DNA from: a virus
Taxonomy: Duplodnaviria > Heunggongvirae > Uroviricota > Caudoviricetes
DNA: 64,000 nt
IMG/VR virus record: IMGVR_UViG_2541047715_000004
Direction: 5' to 3' (one strand)
How positions within the stretch are numbered: the stretch's first letter is position 1; every line of letters starts with the position of its first letter. Under the pieces are notes generated by a model. It was not told the DNA's origin and did not search any database. It was given only the letters and a program-made list of their open reading frames with translations. The translations under genes were made by a program, and so were the position numbers. Below are positions 5,481 through 56,205 of the stretch, piece after piece.

Positions 5481-6149
5481 ATGACCAAGATCTTTGTGGT
5501 TGGCGGCACAAAGGGCGGGCCTGGCAAATCCACCGTTGCCCAGCAAATTGCCGTTTGCCTGAAAGTCAAAAAGAAGAAGAAGGTTTATATCACTGATATA
5601 GATATTCAGCGCACGACAACAAGCTGGTGTGAAGACCGTCGACAGAACGAAGACCTTGAGCTGATTCCTTTTGCATACGTTCAGGATGACATCATTAAGC
5701 ACCTAAAATCGCTTCAGGGTAGAGCTGAGTTTGTAGTGGTAGATGCTGGTGGCTTCGACTCCGAAATTCAGCGACAAGCGATGCTGATGGCTGACGTTAT
5801 CATTATCCCGCTGCGTCCTAAGCGTCGTGATTTGAAATCTTTACGTGACATCGATCCTATTATCGACAATGTTCGCAATGTAAACGATAAAGTGAAGGTC
5901 CGCGCGGTCATGAACCAGTGCCCGGCTTTGCCATCACAAGTGTCTCGCATTCTGGCGGCTAAAGAGATTGTTGAGACGTTTGGCATCGAGTCTGCGCCAG
6001 TCAATCTATATAACCGCAACGTCTATGATGATGCGGAAGAGTCTGGTCGTTCTATCTTTGAAATGACCGGTAGCGAGCGCGACAAAAAGGCGGAAGCCGA
6101 GTTTGAAGAATTTGTAGATTATCTGTTGAGTCTGGAGGAAGAAGAATAA
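5481..6149 (+). CDS. parA: ParA-family partition ATPase
   Basis: Deviant Walker A GGTKGGPGKST near N-terminus; 222 aa; followed by small RHH-like partner. Confidence 0.85.
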   Translation: MTKIFVVGGTKGGPGKSTVAQQIAVCLKVKKKKKVYITDIDIQRTTTSWCEDRRQNEDLELIPFAYVQDDIIKHLKSLQGRAEFVVVDAGGFDSEIQRQAMLMADVIIIPLRPKRRDLKSLRDIDPIIDNVRNVNDKVKVRAVMNQCPALPSQVSRILAAKEIVETFGIESAPVNLYNRNVYDDAEESGRSIFEMTGSERDKKAEAEFEEFVDYLLSLEEEE

Positions 6150-6508
6150 TGTCCATGAAAATGGGTGACCTAGCAAAGCGCAAAGAGCCTGATGCACCGG
6201 CTAAGAACACAACTCCTTTGCGCCAACCAGTCAGACCACAGGGACGCCCGACTCGTGGCAAAGAGAAAATTAAAAGCCGCACAATGTCACTGGAGGACGA
6301 ATACTTCGAACTGCTGGAGATGATGAAGTTCATCCCTCGCTTCGAGAAGTTCACTCGTTCTGACGTGATTCGAGCAGCCATTTTCCATCTGGCAGAGAAG
6401 TCACCGCAGGAAATCGAGGACATCGTGAAATTGAATGAGGCGATCACCGCTGCCGATGTCACGATGCGTACCGATGAAATTAAACGCGAGTTAATGAAGA
6501 AAGGTTGA
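6149..6508 (+). CDS. small partition DNA-binding protein (ParG/RHH-like)
   Basis: 119 aa; basic N-terminus then RHH-like segment; start overlaps parA stop. Confidence 0.5.
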   Translation: MSMKMGDLAKRKEPDAPAKNTTPLRQPVRPQGRPTRGKEKIKSRTMSLEDEYFELLEMMKFIPRFEKFTRSDVIRAAIFHLAEKSPQEIEDIVKLNEAITAADVTMRTDEIKRELMKKG

Positions 6509-6517
6509 TATAAATCT

Positions 6518-6547
6518 CTAAGGCTGGTCTGCATTGGACAGCCTTAG
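6518..6547. terminator. bidirectional hairpin between convergent genes
   Basis: CTAAGGCTG...CAGCCTTAG inverted repeat between 6508 and 6569. Confidence 0.5.
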
Positions 6548-6568
6548 AAATATTTCGTTCTATGAAAG

Positions 6569-7642
6569 CTATTCGTAGTTAAGCTCACCGAACAGACTGA
6601 ACATCAAGTCACCATCCAAAATTTCAAAGGGCAACTCGACATACTCATCCTTATGTCTCGGAATTGCGTTGCCGTCGTTAGGGGCATTCTTGGTATAACC
6701 TTTTACATGTTTACCGTTTTCTTTTGTATACGGCAGCACGACAATTCGACCGTGATTTTTTGAAATGATAGTTCCTTCTTTCCAGAGCGTATTGCCTCTT
6801 GAGGTGGTTTCGCTTTCGCTAGCAACTTTAACACTCCAACCTACCTGATTTTTGTCCTCAAACCAGAAAACAAAGTTGCCAACAACCAGTACCTTTTGCC
6901 CATTCCTGAGAGCTTCATCCAGCATTCTTTTTACGCTGGCGAGTTGCAGTAACCGGTTAGCACGCGGCAGAAGCATTGAGCGAATAGTCGCTTTTGTTTT
7001 TCCCCAATGTGCAGCACCTGATAAACCAAAACCTCTGGCTATGCGTTCTTGGTAGCAGATCTTCGCTGTCTTAGCTTTGTTGTTATATGAACATTCCCAA
7101 GTGTTAGGAGCAACGAGTTGAAGTGAAACTTGGAATTTGGGAAGAAAAACAAAATGTAAGTAAGGCATCTCGCTTAGCACGTCAAAAAGGGGTTGACGCA
7201 AAGTTTCGTAATCTGGGTTAATTATTAACTCATTTAATGTCACTCGCGGATCGTTGGCGTGTGCCTTAATTGCTTCGTTGAGCATTATATGCTCTTCATC
7301 CATGAGACGTGATTTGGCTTTGAGTGCTTTGTCAACTTTCAAACGCAATGACTTCTTTTGAAACATAGATAGAGGAAGTTTTTCAATGTCAAAGCTCACG
7401 TTTTTATTCAGCTCTAATGCCGCTTTTCTTGCTTCAGGATAGTTATCGTAGTCGTCATCAAAAGCGTGGTTTGGCATACCACGATCAACATATCGCCGAT
7501 ACCAAGCAAGGGTTCCATCATTACGGAGTTTCAGACAGAACATCGACCATTTATTCCGTTCATATTTAGGCTGAGGCCAAAAAGCCAGTTCGGGAAGGCC
7601 ATATCCTGGAAGTCTATTCATGCGCATGGTGACAATATCCAC
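6569..7642 (-). CDS. hypothetical protein (lone minus-strand gene)
   Basis: 357 aa ORF with no motif I recognise; opposite orientation to flanking operons. Confidence 0.5.
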   Translation of the reverse strand: MDIVTMRMNRLPGYGLPELAFWPQPKYERNKWSMFCLKLRNDGTLAWYRRYVDRGMPNHAFDDDYDNYPEARKAALELNKNVSFDIEKLPLSMFQKKSLRLKVDKALKAKSRLMDEEHIMLNEAIKAHANDPRVTLNELIINPDYETLRQPLFDVLSEMPYLHFVFLPKFQVSLQLVAPNTWECSYNNKAKTAKICYQERIARGFGLSGAAHWGKTKATIRSMLLPRANRLLQLASVKRMLDEALRNGQKVLVVGNFVFWFEDKNQVGWSVKVASESETTSRGNTLWKEGTIISKNHGRIVVLPYTKENGKHVKGYTKNAPNDGNAIPRHKDEYVELPFEILDGDLMFSLFGELNYE

Positions 7643-7744
7643 GAGGCTAAAACACTGATTCTAACATGATCTCCCTTGATAAATCTGTCAATGACATAGC
7701 ATCTGGGGTTGGAGTCAAATTATGTTGTTCTTGGTATCCATTAG

Positions 7745-7803
7745 GAGCCTGTTTCTGTATATAAATAATAAGTAACTTATTAAATATATACGGAAGCAGG
7801 TCT
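7745..7803. repeat. long GC-stem / AT-loop hairpin element, copy 1
   Basis: GCCTGTTTCTGTATATA...TATATACGGAAGCAGGTC inverted repeat with TATAAATA-containing loop; second copy at 55221..55281. Confidence 0.6.
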
Positions 7804-7907
7804 TTTAAAAGACACCACCAGAACAACTCCCTTCCGTTTTCACTTCCAAAAACTGCCACCAGTCGCTATCATCCGCTCATTGTGATAAGTAAGTAACTAC
7901 CTACCGG

Positions 7908-8657
7908 GTGAGCCACATGAGCCAAATCTTTTTCGATACCATCGACAACGACCAGTACGACTTCATGACAGAGTGGAATACCGCTGTTATGGACAAGTGG
8001 GTCGCTGAAAACATTGGTTTGTCGCGCTGTAAAGATGAGGCTGAACTCTTCGAGACGAAGTGGTTTGATTACCGCGACATGCATCCTCTTATGGCCACCT
8101 GTCTGTTTACGGAGGCATACAAACGTCAGTACTCAAATATCATGCTGACGCACGGTCGCGAACACTTTGAAACAGCTCCGTTCACCACCGGGTTAAAACG
8201 CCTGCCTTATCAGGAGTTGTCGACTGCCAATAAAACGTCTCTATGGAAAGCACGCCAGTTTGCTGACCGCTATTGCTGCTCATACGACTACTTTATCTCC
8301 ACCGTTCTTTCCGCAGCTGCACGACGGCTGTGGGACAAGCTGCCGCGCCCACAGCATTTATGGCAGCCAGAACTGATTGAGATATTTGAAGAGAAATTAG
8401 CCAGACGCGCAACAACCCGTCTGGATGACTCTCTGGTTAGCTTTAAGTATATGGGAGACATGCAGTTCAACCCGATTCAGGAAAGCTATTTTGAGTGGAT
8501 TCTGGAGCGTTTGCGCACCATCCCTCGCAGTAAGCGCATACGCGCAATTTTCTCCGCTATCTGGCTAATGGAAATCGTTCCAGAGCGCCTTATTTCCGCC
8601 CACTTTCCAGAAGAACTGGAAGAAGCACGGCGGTTTATTGATCCCCTATCTAATTAA
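7908..8657 (+). CDS. hypothetical protein
   Basis: 249 aa ORF upstream of helicase gene. Confidence 0.5.
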   Translation: MSHMSQIFFDTIDNDQYDFMTEWNTAVMDKWVAENIGLSRCKDEAELFETKWFDYRDMHPLMATCLFTEAYKRQYSNIMLTHGREHFETAPFTTGLKRLPYQELSTANKTSLWKARQFADRYCCSYDYFISTVLSAAARRLWDKLPRPQHLWQPELIEIFEEKLARRATTRLDDSLVSFKYMGDMQFNPIQESYFEWILERLRTIPRSKRIRAIFSAIWLMEIVPERLISAHFPEELEEARRFIDPLSN

Positions 8658-8700
8658 CTAATACTAGAAAACAATTTGTTTAAAAAACAAAGGAAAGCAC

Positions 8701-10041
8701 ATGACCGAACTTTGCCATACAGGACGCGGGCTGTCCGAAGAGTTTGATGAAGATTTCCAGAACAGACTGACGGCATATTTTTGTCGTGATCACGAGTTTC
8801 TTACTCGTGCGGGAGATCTGGTTGTGCCTAGCCAGTTTGCCAATGCGGCCAATGCCATATTGGTTAATATGGTTTCGGGCTATTACCGTATGTACAAGAG
8901 CGCGCCCTCTTCATCTGCAATTCTGGATATGCTTAAGCGTGCGAAACGCGATAAGACTATCCGTGAGGAACTATTCGCCGATGTTGTTGCTGCGTTTAAG
9001 CGCATTCTTGCAGAAAAATTGTCCGATACCTCGTACATGGTTGACCAGGTATCAACCTTCGCAAAAAGTGTAGCGTTTGATGATGCTCTGATTAAGGCTG
9101 CTGAACTGAAAGAGAAAGGCGACTTTCAGGGGGCGATGGCAATCATGGCCAAGGTTCAGCAGATTGGATCGAACGAAGCGACCGGAATCTATGACTACTA
9201 CACCTCCGCAAGTGAGCGATTGAAAGCGCGTGAATATGAGGCTTCAGAGGAGTATGTACCAAACAGTATTACAACTGGACTCCCTCTTCTCGATAGGTTG
9301 CTGTACCAAAAAGGCTGGGCAAAGCGCGAAATGGTGCTCTTCATGGGGTTCGCTAAATCCGGTAAATCGACCGCAATGGGTGAGTTTTCCATAAACGCAA
9401 CGCTTGCTGGCTACAATGTTCTGTATCTCTCGCTGGAGGTTCACACCACCATTTTATCCGACCGTTTTGATGCAAGATTGTCGGAGACAGAAATGTCCAA
9501 GCTGGTGGAACGGCGCGATGAGGTTCATCGTAAGTTGGCAGAGTTGGGAGCCACGAAGGGGATTGGTAGTTTGTGGGTGGTTGAGCGTCCGTCAGGAAGT
9601 ATGTCACCGGCAGATCTGGACCGTATGCTTAACAGCATGAAAGCCAACGGCATGGTACCTGACATGGTTGTTGTCGACTACGCAGATTTGATGCGTGCCA
9701 GTTATGACCTTCGTGATGATCGCGCCAACATTCGTAGTATCTACACCGATTTACGTGCTCTTTATGACAAGCATAACGTTGCTGGGATCACGGCATCGCA
9801 GACAAACCGTGAAGGTGGCGCGTCAGAAGTTGCCACAATGATGCACGCTGCCGACAACATCGAAAAAGTACGTATTGCTGACCTGGTAATAACGATCAAC
9901 AAAACCGAAGAAGAAGAAGCGAAAGGAGAGGCTCGTCTCTACTTTGCCGGTTCACGTAACCAGCAGGGAGGGATCAGCATTCGCGTTAAACAAAACCTCG
10001 AACAAATGCGCTTCATTGAGCGAATCTTAGACGTTACCTAA
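8701..10041 (+). CDS. DnaB-like replicative DNA helicase
   Basis: Walker A GFAKSGKST, Walker B-like VVVDYADLM, RecA-fold C-terminal domain; 446 aa. Confidence 0.8.
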   Translation: MTELCHTGRGLSEEFDEDFQNRLTAYFCRDHEFLTRAGDLVVPSQFANAANAILVNMVSGYYRMYKSAPSSSAILDMLKRAKRDKTIREELFADVVAAFKRILAEKLSDTSYMVDQVSTFAKSVAFDDALIKAAELKEKGDFQGAMAIMAKVQQIGSNEATGIYDYYTSASERLKAREYEASEEYVPNSITTGLPLLDRLLYQKGWAKREMVLFMGFAKSGKSTAMGEFSINATLAGYNVLYLSLEVHTTILSDRFDARLSETEMSKLVERRDEVHRKLAELGATKGIGSLWVVERPSGSMSPADLDRMLNSMKANGMVPDMVVVDYADLMRASYDLRDDRANIRSIYTDLRALYDKHNVAGITASQTNREGGASEVATMMHAADNIEKVRIADLVITINKTEEEEAKGEARLYFAGSRNQQGGISIRVKQNLEQMRFIERILDVT

Positions 10042-10122
10042 AAAATAAGCGTGGAGAACACCTCCACGCTTGATTCATTGGTGAAACAACTTTTCTTTTG
10101 CCAAACCACAAAAGAAAAACAC

Positions 10123-11304
10123 ATGAGCCTTTATGTTATATCAACATTTAGGTTGGTCACAATATTGCCTGTTAAAAGTGGAATTATCGTGAGCGAGCTG
10201 AAAGAGCTAATTACCGAATTAGATTTTGAACAATGGTTGGATACTGAAGGTATCGTTTATCGACGTGGAGGCGTGAGTACTCGCGGTCGTGAAGTGAATA
10301 TCAAGGAGTGTCCGGTATGCGGCAGCTCCAACTGGAAGGTATATTTCAATCTGACCAGTGGCGTCGGTAAATGCTTCGCTGGTGATCATCCCGAAGAGAT
10401 TCAGTTCAATAAGCTGGTCTTCCTCAAGCACTACAGCGGCAAATCACGACGACAGTTCGAGGAATATGTGCAGAACGCCCTTCTTTCCCAGGGGTGGGCA
10501 CCAAAGAAAGAAGAGCTAGTGCTTGCAAGCACAGTCGAGTTAGAGGAGCCAGTTGCACTCCCTCGTCATTACGAGCTTCCTATAGATGGCCGTCTTCCAG
10601 ACTATCTGGTTGAACGAAACATATCGCCTGAAATGGCAAAGTATTTTGACCTACGATACTGCGTCGAAGGCAAGCACGCCTATGTAGATCCGTATACAGA
10701 TCAGGTTAAAGGACAGATATTCGATATGCGAATACTGATACCGGTTTACGATCTGGATGGGGTAATGAAGACATTTCAGGGACGAGACATTACCGGTACA
10801 GCAGAACGCCGCTACCTCTTTCCTATGCAACTTCCAGCTTCAGGTAAGTTTCTCTACAACGGCCATAATGCAGTCGGCAAACAGACTGTAGTTGTCTGTG
10901 AGGGGGCGTTCGATGTTATGGGGGTTAAACGAGCTATTTTTGACGAAGAAACATTACGTGATTACGTGGAACCAATAGGAACGTTCGGGATGCATCTATC
11001 TGGTAACACCACTCAGGATGCAGAAGATCAGTTAGGCGCGTTCCTGACGCTCAAGGCGCGTGGATTACGTAATGTGATCATGATGTGGGATAGTGAAAAG
11101 CAAGCTATACGCAACACGATGGCCGCAGCCAGGCGACTGACCAGTATCGGTCTTAATGTCAAAGTTGCGTGTTTGGGTGAGGAAGGACTCGACCCGGGCG
11201 GTGCAACGCCAGAACAAATTATCAAAGCCTATTATCGGGCAAAACCGTATACCAAACAGTTGGAGTTGCAAAGCAAGGTTTTGGGCATTAAGGCTCTATC
11301 ATAA
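10123..11304 (+). CDS. DNA primase (zinc-ribbon + TOPRIM-like)
   Basis: CPVCGSSNWKV...KC zinc ribbon; VVVCEGAFDVMG TOPRIM-like motif; start set at ATG 10123 with conserved aaagaaaaacacATG context, downstream of hairpin 10047..10071. Confidence 0.6.
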   Translation: MSLYVISTFRLVTILPVKSGIIVSELKELITELDFEQWLDTEGIVYRRGGVSTRGREVNIKECPVCGSSNWKVYFNLTSGVGKCFAGDHPEEIQFNKLVFLKHYSGKSRRQFEEYVQNALLSQGWAPKKEELVLASTVELEEPVALPRHYELPIDGRLPDYLVERNISPEMAKYFDLRYCVEGKHAYVDPYTDQVKGQIFDMRILIPVYDLDGVMKTFQGRDITGTAERRYLFPMQLPASGKFLYNGHNAVGKQTVVVCEGAFDVMGVKRAIFDEETLRDYVEPIGTFGMHLSGNTTQDAEDQLGAFLTLKARGLRNVIMMWDSEKQAIRNTMAAARRLTSIGLNVKVACLGEEGLDPGGATPEQIIKAYYRAKPYTKQLELQSKVLGIKALS

Positions 11305-15602: not shown

Positions 15603-15677
15603 GATGGTGTAGCTCAGCGGTAGAGCAGTTGGCTGTTAACCAACTGGTCGGTGGTTCGAATCCACCCACCATCGCCA
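15603..15677 (+). tRNA. tRNA-Asn (GTT)
   Basis: Cloverleaf by eye: acceptor GATGGTG/CACCATC, D stem GCTC/GAGC, anticodon loop CTGTTAA, T loop TTCGAAT, CCA end. Confidence 0.8.
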
Positions 15678-15682
15678 ATTTA

Positions 15683-15769
15683 GGGGAGTTAGTCCGTAGA
15701 GGTAGCGGTGTAGACTGTAAATCTACTGTCATTGCGACTCGGGTGGTTCGACTCCATCACTCCCCACCA
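15683..15769 (+). tRNA. tRNA-Tyr (GTA), long variable arm
   Basis: Acceptor GGGGAGT/ACTCCCC, anticodon stem GTAGA/TCTAC with loop CTGTAAA, T loop TTCGACT, CCA end; D arm atypical. Confidence 0.65.
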
Positions 15770-15773
15770 AATT

Positions 15774-15849
15774 GCCGGTTTAGCTCAGTTGGTAGAGCGC
15801 CTGCCTTGTAAGCAGGATGTCAGCGGTTCGAGTCCGTTAACCGGCACCA
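15774..15849 (+). tRNA. tRNA-Thr (TGT)
   Basis: Acceptor GCCGGTT/AACCGGC, D stem GCTC/GAGC, anticodon stem CCTGC/GCAGG with loop CTTGTAA, T loop TTCGAGT, CCA end. Confidence 0.8.
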
Positions 15850-52897: not shown

Positions 52898-53455
52898 ATG
52901 ACAACGATTGTTGCAGGCATCGATATCGAGTCTACGGGACTGGATTTCCTTGCTGGTCATAAAATTATTGAAATCGCAATTACCCGCTATGAACTGGAGA
53001 CACAGAGACATATTGATAGTCTGGAGATGCGTTTTAACCCTCGCAGAAACATAGATCCGAAAGCTCAAGCCGTTCATGGCATTTCATTAGAACAGCTCGC
53101 AGCTGAACCTTTGTTGTCAAATCATGCCAGCGAAATTGGCGCTTATATGGGGGCATGTAGTGCGTGGATTGCTCATAACGGCGAAGCGTTTGATATACCA
53201 TTTATTCGACACGAGTTTTCAGGGTATGGAGTAAGACTGCCAGACGTTCCCGTTATAGATACTATGTTATCGGGATTGTGGGCCACAGAAGACGGTAAAC
53301 GTCCTCGCCTTGAAGAGTTGGCCTTCTCTCTTGGCTTTATATACGATCATGCCAAAGCACATAGTGCCTTATATGACACAAACTTAATGATGCAATGCTT
53401 CTTTAAGGCACGTAATAAGTACGGATTTTTTAAATTACCCTCTGAAATTGTGTAA
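52898..53455 (+). CDS. DnaQ-like 3-prime-5-prime exonuclease (DEDDh)
   Basis: Exo motifs IDIESTGLD, HNGEAFDIPF, HSALYD; 185 aa. Confidence 0.8.
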   Translation: MTTIVAGIDIESTGLDFLAGHKIIEIAITRYELETQRHIDSLEMRFNPRRNIDPKAQAVHGISLEQLAAEPLLSNHASEIGAYMGACSAWIAHNGEAFDIPFIRHEFSGYGVRLPDVPVIDTMLSGLWATEDGKRPRLEELAFSLGFIYDHAKAHSALYDTNLMMQCFFKARNKYGFFKLPSEIV

Positions 53456-53460
53456 AACAA

Positions 53461-53497
53461 AAGCCTACTTTAAAGAGAGTTTAAAGTAGGCTTTCTT
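53461..53497 (+). terminator. intrinsic terminator hairpin
   Basis: AAGCCTACTTTAAA...TTTAAAGTAGGCTT followed by T-rich tract. Confidence 0.65.
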
Positions 53498-53615
53498 TTA
53501 AAGAACAGCCGCCTTTCAATCATTTCCTGCCTGTATTTAATACTTTTCCGCCTGATAGGTTTAGTCAAAATGTAGCTATCGAAACGCAAATGTAACCAAG
53601 CAGAAGGAGACTTAC

Positions 53616-54608: not shown

Positions 54609-55202
54609 ATGATTGCAGCCGAAAAAATCAAACAGCGAAAGCGCGACAACTCTCTTCGTGACCTCTGGAGAACACCTGACTGGCTGTTTTCTGCCATTCA
54701 ACGTTATCTTGGAGTGACATTTGATGTTGACGTTGCCTGCAACAAGGACAATGCGAAGCTGCCTAATTTCATAGGCGTTGAGCGTGATGCTTTGAAATCT
54801 GAATGGGGACAGCCAGGTACAATTGCCTTCCTCAATCCACCCTACTCCAAAATCTCCCCCTGGATTGATGCGGCTATACGTGAGCAGGCTCGCGGAGTTA
54901 CAACAGTGATGCTAATTCCTCAATCCCTCGATACAAAGTGGTATGAGCGTGCAACAGAGTGTGCGAATGAGACGATTATTCTGTCTGGTGGCCGCGTAGC
55001 GTTTGTCGAGCCTGACGTCAATTTGGGTCAGGTAGAAGTAAACATCAACCCCGGTGGCAGTATGCTCGTTGTTTTTCGAGGATTCTGTCAGGACGCTGGG
55101 CACTCTATAAGCAAGATCCCTTTGGACGTCATGAAAAGTCTGGGAGGGTATGATCCTGCGAATGTGATCAGGAAAAAAAGACAATCAAAGAAGGCTGCTT
55201 AG
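54609..55202 (+). CDS. DNA N6-adenine methyltransferase, orphan phage Dam type
   Basis: Catalytic NPPY motif (FLNPPYSKISPW); 197 aa; no adjacent nuclease gene. Confidence 0.7.
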   Translation: MIAAEKIKQRKRDNSLRDLWRTPDWLFSAIQRYLGVTFDVDVACNKDNAKLPNFIGVERDALKSEWGQPGTIAFLNPPYSKISPWIDAAIREQARGVTTVMLIPQSLDTKWYERATECANETIILSGGRVAFVEPDVNLGQVEVNINPGGSMLVVFRGFCQDAGHSISKIPLDVMKSLGGYDPANVIRKKRQSKKAA

Positions 55203-55220
55203 TTTGTTCTGGCGTCTGTA

Positions 55221-55281
55221 ATTAGCCTGCTTCTGTATATATAAATAACTACATATTAATTATTAATATACGGAAGCAGGC
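55221..55281. repeat. long GC-stem / AT-loop hairpin element, copy 2
   Basis: GCCTGCTTCTGTATATATAAATA...TATACGGAAGCAGGC; near-identical arms to copy at 7745..7803. Confidence 0.6.
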
Positions 55282-55364
55282 TGTTTTATATCAGAGACTC
55301 CCAGACCTGAACACCACTACAGAATCCACTAGAACCCCTTCCCAGACGCTTTAAAATCGATTTT

Positions 55365-55619
55365 ATGAACCACTTTAAGGAAACCAACATGTCATACCCG
55401 ACTAATGTCGTTGCGCTCGTAGAGAGCGATTTTCTGGCCCAGGCTCGTGAAATGATGAAAGATCGTGAGCAGGCTTTCAACTTGTACGAATGGGCAATTA
55501 AGTGCTTGCATCTTGGGGAGCATCGCGAACTTGTTGAACAGCTTTTAGGTGAGTTGATCAACGAGGTGTTTGCCTTGAATGTTCAACTACATGGTCGAAA
55601 AAATAATCAATCGAAATGA
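55365..55619 (+). CDS. hypothetical protein
   Basis: 84 aa ORF. Confidence 0.35.
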   Translation: MNHFKETNMSYPTNVVALVESDFLAQAREMMKDREQAFNLYEWAIKCLHLGEHRELVEQLLGELINEVFALNVQLHGRKNNQSK

Positions 55620-56205
55620 TAGATAAGTACAAACTATTCATAAAGTGAATTGTAAGTGCTAAGATCTGATAGTTTCCAGTCGTAGACTGGAGGCTCGACC
55701 TGATGGGTGGGGGTAAGCGTCACTGGCGTCAGGTTTAAAAAAGCTCACTACCAGCGTAGAACCGGCACCGTTTAGGGGTTGGGGAAGGGGGAACCAAAGT
55801 GAGCAGAGACAAGGGTCACTTTATGATTGTCGAGTCTGGGGTGTTTCGAGAGGTTGAATCCAGTACTCCCCTTCATAAAGTGTGGGAAGATCTCGGTTCT
55901 GGGGTGCTGTCATCCATAACTTCCCAAGCCTAAGCTGGCAGTAGACTTAGGTCATAACTTTTCAGGTTATGAAACGACCAGGTTGGTGAGGAAATTTTGT
56001 ACTCACCTCCCTGGGAGAGTATTACCTGAAAAGACAACCTCTCACTTCGTTCGAGGTGAACTTCACTCACTTCGTTCGTTCAGTTCAGGTTTATAAAAAC
56101 CTGTTCTGGGAAGTAATTTGTTTATTTTAATAATTATTAACACGCACGCGTGTGCGCACGCGCGAGGAAAAAAAAATCGGCGCGGCGCTTGATTCAGGAG
56201 TTTAT

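Follow-up and report, generated by a model that had tools for sequence, protein, structure and literature searches.

What is a long palindrome doing twice in the intergenic DNA of a single phage genome? The DNA analysed here, a stretch of 64,000 nucleotides that we call the window, had been described in an earlier note as carrying two copies of a hairpin element, with a bidirectional terminator, a promoter framed by a palindrome and a recognition site for DNA processing offered as possible roles. Sequence comparison identifies the window as an SSU5-like phage-plasmid of E. coli/Shigella. The window shares 97-99% identity with Escherichia phages Cyrano, PhiR41_1 and CMS-2020a, approximately 80% with Salmonella phage SSU5 and 76-79% with Klebsiella relatives, and the region around the first palindrome is matched by 733 PLSDB plasmids. 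The genes of SSU5-type phage-plasmids fall into three, mostly co-directional, blocks, with palindromes at the block boundaries. A literature search found no published description of these palindromes.

The two hairpin copies are borne out by the sequence, with the second lying 1-3 nt from the position first given for it (55221-55281). Each is a palindrome of 53-55 bp with arms of the form CCTGCTTCYGTATA around a centre of about 25 nt that is approximately 90% A+T; near-identical arms and A+T-rich centres containing TATAAATA are present in both copies, as had been claimed. The parts are as follows.

7747-7801, no strand: copy 1 (site 1), with the core CCTG...CAGG at 7748-7800
7747-7763: left arm of copy 1, GCCTGTTTCTGTATATA
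7764-7784: A+T centre of copy 1, with the dyad at TAAGTAACTTA
7785-7801: right arm of copy 1, TATATACGGAAGCAGG(T)
7724-7734, no strand: GTTGTTCTTGG, which pairs with CCAGAACAAC at 7818-7827 as an outer inverted repeat and supplies the left member of the CCAGA motif that faces outward
55224-55282, no strand: copy 2 (site 2), with the core at 55226-55280
55224-55240: left arm of copy 2, AGCCTGCTTCTGTATAT
55241-55265: A+T centre of copy 2
55266-55282: right arm of copy 2, ATATACGGAAGCAGGCT
55206-55212, no strand: GTTCTGG (CCAGAAC in reverse complement), the motif on the left flank of copy 2, at a distance of 13 nt

When up to three mismatches are allowed, a 17-mer pattern of the arm matches just these four arms in 64 kb, and none of 100 dinucleotide shuffles reached four or more arm matches, in agreement with the earlier view that such a repeat is unlikely by chance. 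A fuzzy search that allowed three mismatches per arm found no further copy in the window. An inverted-repeat scan reports copy 1 with 26-nt arms (85%) and copy 2 with 17-nt arms (94%). As RNA, the copies fold at -32 kcal/mol (copy 1, z -7.9) and -31.8 kcal/mol (copy 2, z -5.7), so that both form the stable, G+C-containing hairpin of an intrinsic terminator; the corresponding values for single-stranded DNA are -14.1 and -16.6 kcal/mol, with z about -7. With the flanks included, the hairpins extend to imperfect structures of about 110 nt at -49 to -55 kcal/mol; around copy 1, GTTGTTCTTGG and CCAGAACAAC form the outer helix of such a structure (-54.8 kcal/mol).

Both palindromes sit at borders between genes.

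6569-7642, - strand: 357-aa cargo ORF (phrog_22329, no Pfam family), in a hypervariable slot that ends at copy 1
7917-8657, + strand: first gene of the replication block, encoding a 246-aa protein; downstream neighbour of copy 1
8701-10041: DnaB-type helicase gene, in the replication block after copy 1
10051-11304: primase gene, in the same block
54609-55202, + strand: Dam-type adenine methyltransferase gene (Pfam Dam, 2.4e-38)

Copy 1 does lie between divergent ORFs, 6569-7642 (-) and 7917-8657 (+), and copy 2 does follow the methyltransferase gene, whose stop codon is 22 nt 5' of it, such that the Dam transcript would enter copy 2. On the 3' side of copy 2 are small genes of no assigned family, then RNase H. 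In addition to DnaB and primase, the genome encodes Pol III alpha, gp32-, UvsY-, UvsW- and RecA-like proteins, and SbcCD- and RuvC-like nucleases.

A search for additional copies and for conservation clearly returned both. A third copy (site 3) lies 134 nt upstream of terS in closely related genomes; the corresponding region is beyond the window. It is carried by a plasmid, NZ_CP099775.1, that is identical to the window over 6000-8700 and differs elsewhere. Since this plasmid is not the window's own replicon, we regard the third copy as documented in close relatives. Two scans of IMG/VR yielded 134 real instances, of which 58, 34 and 42 belong to sites 1, 2 and 3, respectively, all of them intergenic. 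The first of these scans, with 15-mers, returned mostly random matches, which were filtered, and the instances were classified by their flanks. No copies were found in the IMG/VR scans outside the SSU5-like contexts; one further divergent relative also has a site-1 copy.

The arms are far better conserved than their surroundings. Relatives with just 63-65% identity in the neighbouring proteins have the same arms, CCTGCTTCYGTATA, around a completely different centre. At 59% identity, a Raoultella plasmid has changes in both arms; the Raoultella and K. oxytoca lineages have the arms CCTGCTCCCCAT. An IMG/VR scan for lineages with variant arms found one true variant, its other matches being due to chance. 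At approximately 48% identity other hairpins stand in place of the palindrome, and in a Morganella relative the site-1 position holds a canonical terminator, GGGAGCA..TGCTCCC followed by a T-run, a replacement that speaks for termination as the role of this site. By comparison, an ordinary terminator at 53455-53499, 1.8 kb 5' of copy 2, is replaced by a wholly different hairpin in SSU5. That the arms are kept at 63-65% identity while an ordinary terminator has been swapped in SSU5 argues that the arms are unusually constrained.

We aligned 49 distinct copies and found 94.9% of stem cells paired and the stem essentially invariant. Covariation in the stem did not rise above controls in these 49 copies (0.104 versus 0.094 in shuffled alignments, with 56 of 500 shuffles as high); given an invariant stem, covariation speaks neither for nor against the structure. 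One Y/R position shows all four combinations (UG 21, CG 15, UA 9, CA 4). The centre variants are lineage-specific and common to the sites within one genome, which points to concerted evolution.

Polar features that bear on termination lie on one side of each of the two copies in the window.

7801-7806, + strand: T-run TCTTTT directly 3' of the right arm of copy 1, a U-tract in the rightward transcript
7807-7890, + strand: C-rich, G-poor, rut-like tract after copy 1, containing CCAGAAC at 7818-7824
55283-55287, + strand: T-run GTTTT, 3' of the copy 2 right arm
55288-55370, + strand: tract rich in C and poor in G that follows copy 2; CCCAGAC occurs in it at 55300-55306 and again at 55341-55347

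The side bias holds across lineages. At site 1, a T-run of at least three is found on the downstream side in 7 of 8 lineage representatives compared to 4 of 18 on the other side; at site 2, the corresponding counts are 4 of 5 and 0 of 4. Copies 1 and 2 therefore each have the U-tract of an intrinsic terminator, though of just 4 U, and a simple terminator scan demanding 5 T in 8 called none of the copies, as a run of that length escapes it. The C/G ratio over 80 nt is 2.66 at site 1 (8 representatives) and 2.17 at site 2, within the top 0.2-4% of genome windows, and so sites 1 and 2 are followed by a rut-like tract, of the kind seen at Rho entry sites. Site 3 has neither U-tract nor C-rich tract in the common lineages; in a divergent lineage, a U5 tract follows the site-3 copy.

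The strongest functional evidence for termination comes from gene expression in a relative. In Cyrano, the co-directional parA partition operon (CYRAN_28-30) ends 24 nt before the copy-1 orthologue, CYRAN_31 begins 117 nt after the palindrome, and the palindrome is the sole hairpin in the 193-bp spacer. RNA-seq of the Cyrano/LF82 lysogen gives log2(FPKM+5) values of 5.2-10.8 for CYRAN_28-30 and of 2.3-4.2 for CYRAN_31, where the floor is 2.32 (PMC9928086, supplementary file 2). RNA thus falls 7- to 230-fold across the copy-1 orthologue (PMC9928086), a figure that compares per-gene values from a relative's replicon and is distinct from 3'-end mapping. Sites 2 and 3 are uninformative in these data because their upstream genes are silent in the lysogen. 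A co-directional upstream gene is present at copy 2 (Dam) and, in Cyrano and SSU5, at copy 1. In the window, the ORF upstream of copy 1 is on the - strand; with the gene 5' of it on the opposite strand, copy 1 has no adjacent transcript to terminate here. Of the proposed bidirectional terminator, then, termination is supported by the fall in RNA in Cyrano, and the bidirectional part does not hold, as the T-run and C-rich tract are on the + side only. We infer that the palindrome itself causes the fall in Cyrano, that copy 2 acts likewise and that Rho provides a back-up.

The copies also mark places where genomes have been joined. Similarity to Cyrano, PhiR41_1 and CMS-2020a begins at the left arm of copy 1 (window 7740-7748), and among relatives site 1 is preceded by at least 10 unrelated left flanks. 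These two observations suggest that the copies behave as module-exchange junctions as well. Repeats of 55 bp at block boundaries lend themselves to recombination, and this would explain both why cargo has been swapped at copy 1 and why the copies evolve in concert. In the slot between the parA operon and copy 1, SSU5 has an unrelated gene for a DUF2971 protein, and Cyrano one for a different hypothetical protein. In a distant relative from K. pneumoniae (JALJUU010000001.1), two copies of another palindrome, TTAATGCTAATGTA..., at L226 2293-2332 and 2836-2877, flank a - strand cargo gene in the slot between the partition and replication genes.

Altogether, the most likely reading, to which we give somewhat better than an even chance, is that the palindromes serve at the borders of gene blocks as strong transcription terminators, or insulators, and at the same time as recombination junctions. 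In the mechanism that we propose, a transcript reaching copy 1 or copy 2 would fold into a hairpin with a G+C-containing base of 16-18 bp and an A/U-rich top, and the U-tract directly after it would cause RNA polymerase to release the transcript. The 80 C-rich, G-poor nucleotides 3' of the hairpin would let Rho halt any read-through. Lytic blocks, one of replication genes following copy 1 and the other following copy 2, would in this way be insulated from operons whose expression has to continue in the plasmid prophage, of which the partition operon would be the clearest case. One may further speculate, from the frozen arms, that a phage-encoded factor also recognises the element, for example to open the gates in lytic growth.

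Several features exceed the needs of a plain terminator. A motif, (CT)CCCAGAC, faces outward on both sides of the palindrome at 11-28 nt from the arms and is otherwise rare in the genome; CCCAGA occurs in 22 of 44 representative flanks compared to 0.29 expected, and a terminator has no need of it. Arm changes without compensation are found at site 2 of SSU5 and Kp4727 (CAGACGCAGG) and in the left arms of Raoultella. Together, the invariant arms, the outward motif and a terS copy without a U-tract mean that a phage factor may recognise the element, at the level of RNA or of DNA. The broader form of this idea, that the palindromes are a cis-acting set for a protein of the SSU5 group, with termination as part of the role, we consider unlikely, though a serious contender. 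The sites would then be either regulated gates, terminating in the plasmid prophage and opened in lytic growth, or cruciform DNA sites that would act as origins or as break or entry points for T4-like recombination-dependent replication.

A version confined to DNA, in which a phage-encoded sequence-specific protein binds the element, is similarly tentative. The arms would be half-sites, the A+T centre a region of melting, bending or cruciform extrusion, and CCCAGAC an auxiliary site; the set could comprise lytic origins, dispersed operators or centromere-like sites of the KorB or ParB type, or cruciform entry points, and the T-runs that follow sites 1 and 2 would be add-ons exploiting an RNA hairpin that forms anyway. 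DNA-level recognition is the best home for what a plain terminator leaves unexplained: arms that stay invariant as loops change freely, arm changes that go uncompensated, all four combinations at the Y/R position, a flank motif that is symmetric and outward-facing, and a U-tract-less copy adjoining terS, downstream of two ParB_N genes. The genome's replication and recombination set, from DnaB to the RuvC-like nuclease, is also in keeping with it. However, no candidate binder emerged among the neighbours: the proteins encoded after copies 1 and 2 and before site 3 have no function assigned in Pfam or PHROGs, and the conserved 246-aa protein (7917-8657) has neither a Foldseek match in the PDB nor a Pfam family, its AlphaFold (AF2) model being all-helical and of good confidence (pLDDT 87.6, pTM 0.86). 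An arm spacing that varies by about 5 bp, and a motif distance ranging over 11-28 nt, would be hard to reconcile with a rigid protein complex. No sign of an origin is seen in the GC skew, though it is uniformly positive and transcription-driven and so uninformative on this point; the plasmid replicon (RepA) is located elsewhere, and the putative repressor has another inverted repeat beside its own gene. Finally, DNA binding alone does not explain why the T-run and C-rich tract are polar with respect to the sense strand.

Alternatively, the hairpins could process or stabilise RNA in place of terminating it, as RNase III-type sites like those of the T7 early region or as protection of 3' ends. 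In favour of this are the long helices of about 25 bp, the extended hairpins of about 110 nt that form with the flanks, the recurrence of similar sequences at intergenic boundaries and the site-3 copy that has no U-tract. Yet RNase III needs little sequence identity, which leaves the invariant arms unexplained, and processing alone would not silence a downstream gene approximately 100-fold. Rfam 15 has no match to the hairpins at the gathering score, and the sub-threshold matches in E-value mode are spurious, miRNA-like ones. We think this role improbable.

Slightly less probable still is that the copies have no function of their own and are linkers for recombination, or a selfish repeat of the MITE type, whose uniformity gene conversion maintains. 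The loops do evolve in concert within genomes, mosaic breakpoints fall at site 1, and in relatives cargo genes are flanked by, or lie beside, palindromes. Against this, there are three copies at fixed positions and none in IMG/VR outside SSU5-like contexts, and the arms are identical in three relatives with entirely different loops, which indicates selection on the arms and not copying of the whole unit.

That the palindrome is a packaging (cos/pac) cleavage site, or part of one, is very doubtful. The idea draws on the linear GenBank records of SSU5 and Cyrano, which open within the site-3 palindrome, 134 nt before terS, but three copies would cut the genome into pieces of about 31, 47 and 30 kb, the starting point of the Cyrano record was probably chosen to agree with SSU5, and the records of other phages begin at other places. 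In assemblies of these replicons, breaks tend to fall at the three 55-bp repeats, and this explains the record openings equally well. The record ends within the palindrome are at L132 26340-26380 plus L133 1-17 for Cyrano and at L135 2955-3000 plus L134 1-18 for SSU5; an assembly break at a repeat, followed later by convention, is a more likely origin for them than a physical end.

Least credible is the suggestion in the earlier note that TATAAATA in the loop is a T4-type late promoter: most copies contain the octamer and the genome has several T4-like DNA-metabolism genes, but the octamer is not enriched (4 occurrences in the window, 8 in the 108-kb Cyrano genome), is not placed ahead of the structural genes, has no + strand occurrence inside the structural block (1-27 kb; the site-3 copy stops shortly before terS), and is followed at copies 1 and 2 by genes that are not late genes; the Cyrano and SSU5 annotations list no late transcription factors of the gp55/gp33 type. 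TATAAATA is also absent from the Cyrano copy-1 orthologue.

Three other identities were considered and set aside. Just single half-sites of a LexA box, CTGT-N8-ACAG, are present (CTGTATAT or ATATACAG), approximately 25 bp apart, and the right arms mostly read CGG, not CAG. The nut or put sites of antitermination do not fit loops that vary freely around a conserved stem base, and no Rfam family was matched. The palindrome is also unlikely to be the operator of the putative prophage repressor because the repressor region carries a different inverted repeat. The putative repressor gene is at 19624-20010 (-), and the adjoining 20011-20261, whose inverted repeat, TCTGGTAAGTGCTTACCGA / TCGATAGGCACTTAAAAGA, bears no relation to the arms of the palindrome, is probably where the immunity operator lies.

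The spacers around the palindromes hold further conserved sequence. The leader between copy 1 and the replication block, 7828-7916, is conserved far above the genome average in Cyrano and SSU5; for example, TCCCTTCCGTTTCCACTTCCAAAAA...CCAGTCGCTAT(C/G)AT...TAAGTAAGTRACTACCTA matches between genomes that are approximately 80% identical overall. Conservation this strong suggests a regulatory leader or a promoter. It contains a weak but conserved promoter-like pair.

7844-7849, + strand: TTCCAA of the promoter-like pair after copy 1
7867-7872, + strand: TATCAT of the same pair, which scores 8 of 12

A promoter scan did not call this pair, about 45 nt 3' of copy 1, and we treat it as a putative promoter. 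The spacer from site 3 to terS contains two copies, approximately 28 nt apart, of a conserved direct repeat, AACAAGTTG(G)TT(T)AG, located in the related plasmid at L004 25555-25640 and in SSU5 at L134 50-125. A canonical hairpin with a T-run follows it, immediately before the terS ribosome-binding site. This repeat region could serve late-operon control or packaging recognition.

Elsewhere in the window, 27978-28396 (-) matches the Rfam cspA thermoregulator over its full length (185.7 bits; gathering score 78) and is a cold-shock 5'UTR of the cspA type, and 15603-15846 (+) holds three adjacent tRNA genes (Rfam 75.5, 41.6 and 74.9 bits), annotated at the matching place in Cyrano as Asn, Thr and Ser. 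Beyond copy 2, a small gene at 55389-55619 is followed by approximately 500 nt with only tiny ORFs (55620-56165), and an alternating purine-pyrimidine tract, ACACGCACGCGTGTGCGCACGCGCG, lies at 56140-56164. The orthologue of the ORF at 55799-55933, CYRAN_81, has a lysogen expression of 117 against a median of 9.8, among the highest of the prophage loci, and such high expression hints at a possible regulatory RNA.

Clinical E. coli, Shigella, Salmonella and Klebsiella commonly carry SSU5-like phage-plasmids, whose regulation is essentially uncharted. The boundary set provides a handle on how partition genes are kept on and adjacent lytic replication genes off in a plasmid prophage, and on where cargo, such as toxin-antitoxin and defence-like genes, gets swapped in. 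Any factor that does recognise the frozen arms would add a new regulator of lysogeny and lysis to the SSU5 group.

Among known systems, the oriS and oriL origins of HSV-1 have an A+T-rich centre, inverted conserved boxes and three intergenic copies per genome; the likeness to the palindromes is purely architectural. The KorB OB sites of RK2 are dispersed palindromic operators, similar to which phage P1 has 11 Lpa-dependent late promoters with 9-bp inverted repeats. As with such operators, a few near-identical palindromes stand at the operon borders of one replicon, and the sequence is conserved, not just the structure. Unlike them, the palindromes have arms 39-42 bp apart centre to centre, at variable spacing, and their cognate protein is only hypothetical. 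The early RNase III sites of phage T7 are likewise several related long hairpins between cistrons on one strand, but they leave downstream genes unsilenced. In T4-type phages, Arbiol, Comeau and Krisch reportedly described in 2010 promoter-early stem-loops (PeSL) as mobile regulatory cassettes that mediate modular shuffling. Our palindromes share with those cassettes repeated stem-loops at block borders beside variable ORFs, mosaic breakpoints and a terminator-like hairpin with a downstream promoter region. They differ in being three fixed-position copies and not dozens, in having a weak candidate promoter in place of a functional early one, and in residing in a temperate siphovirus with a plasmid prophage. 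From intrinsic terminators, with or without a Rho site, they depart in an unusually long hairpin, an A/U-rich top of about 25 nt, a short U-run (4 U), and one stem sequence used at three places and frozen across divergent genomes, with one copy that has no U-run. What they share with such terminators is the hairpin with a U-run directly after it, the position downstream of a gene (at copy 2 and, in Cyrano and SSU5, at copy 1), the collapse of RNA across the copy-1 orthologue in Cyrano and the C-rich tract that follows.
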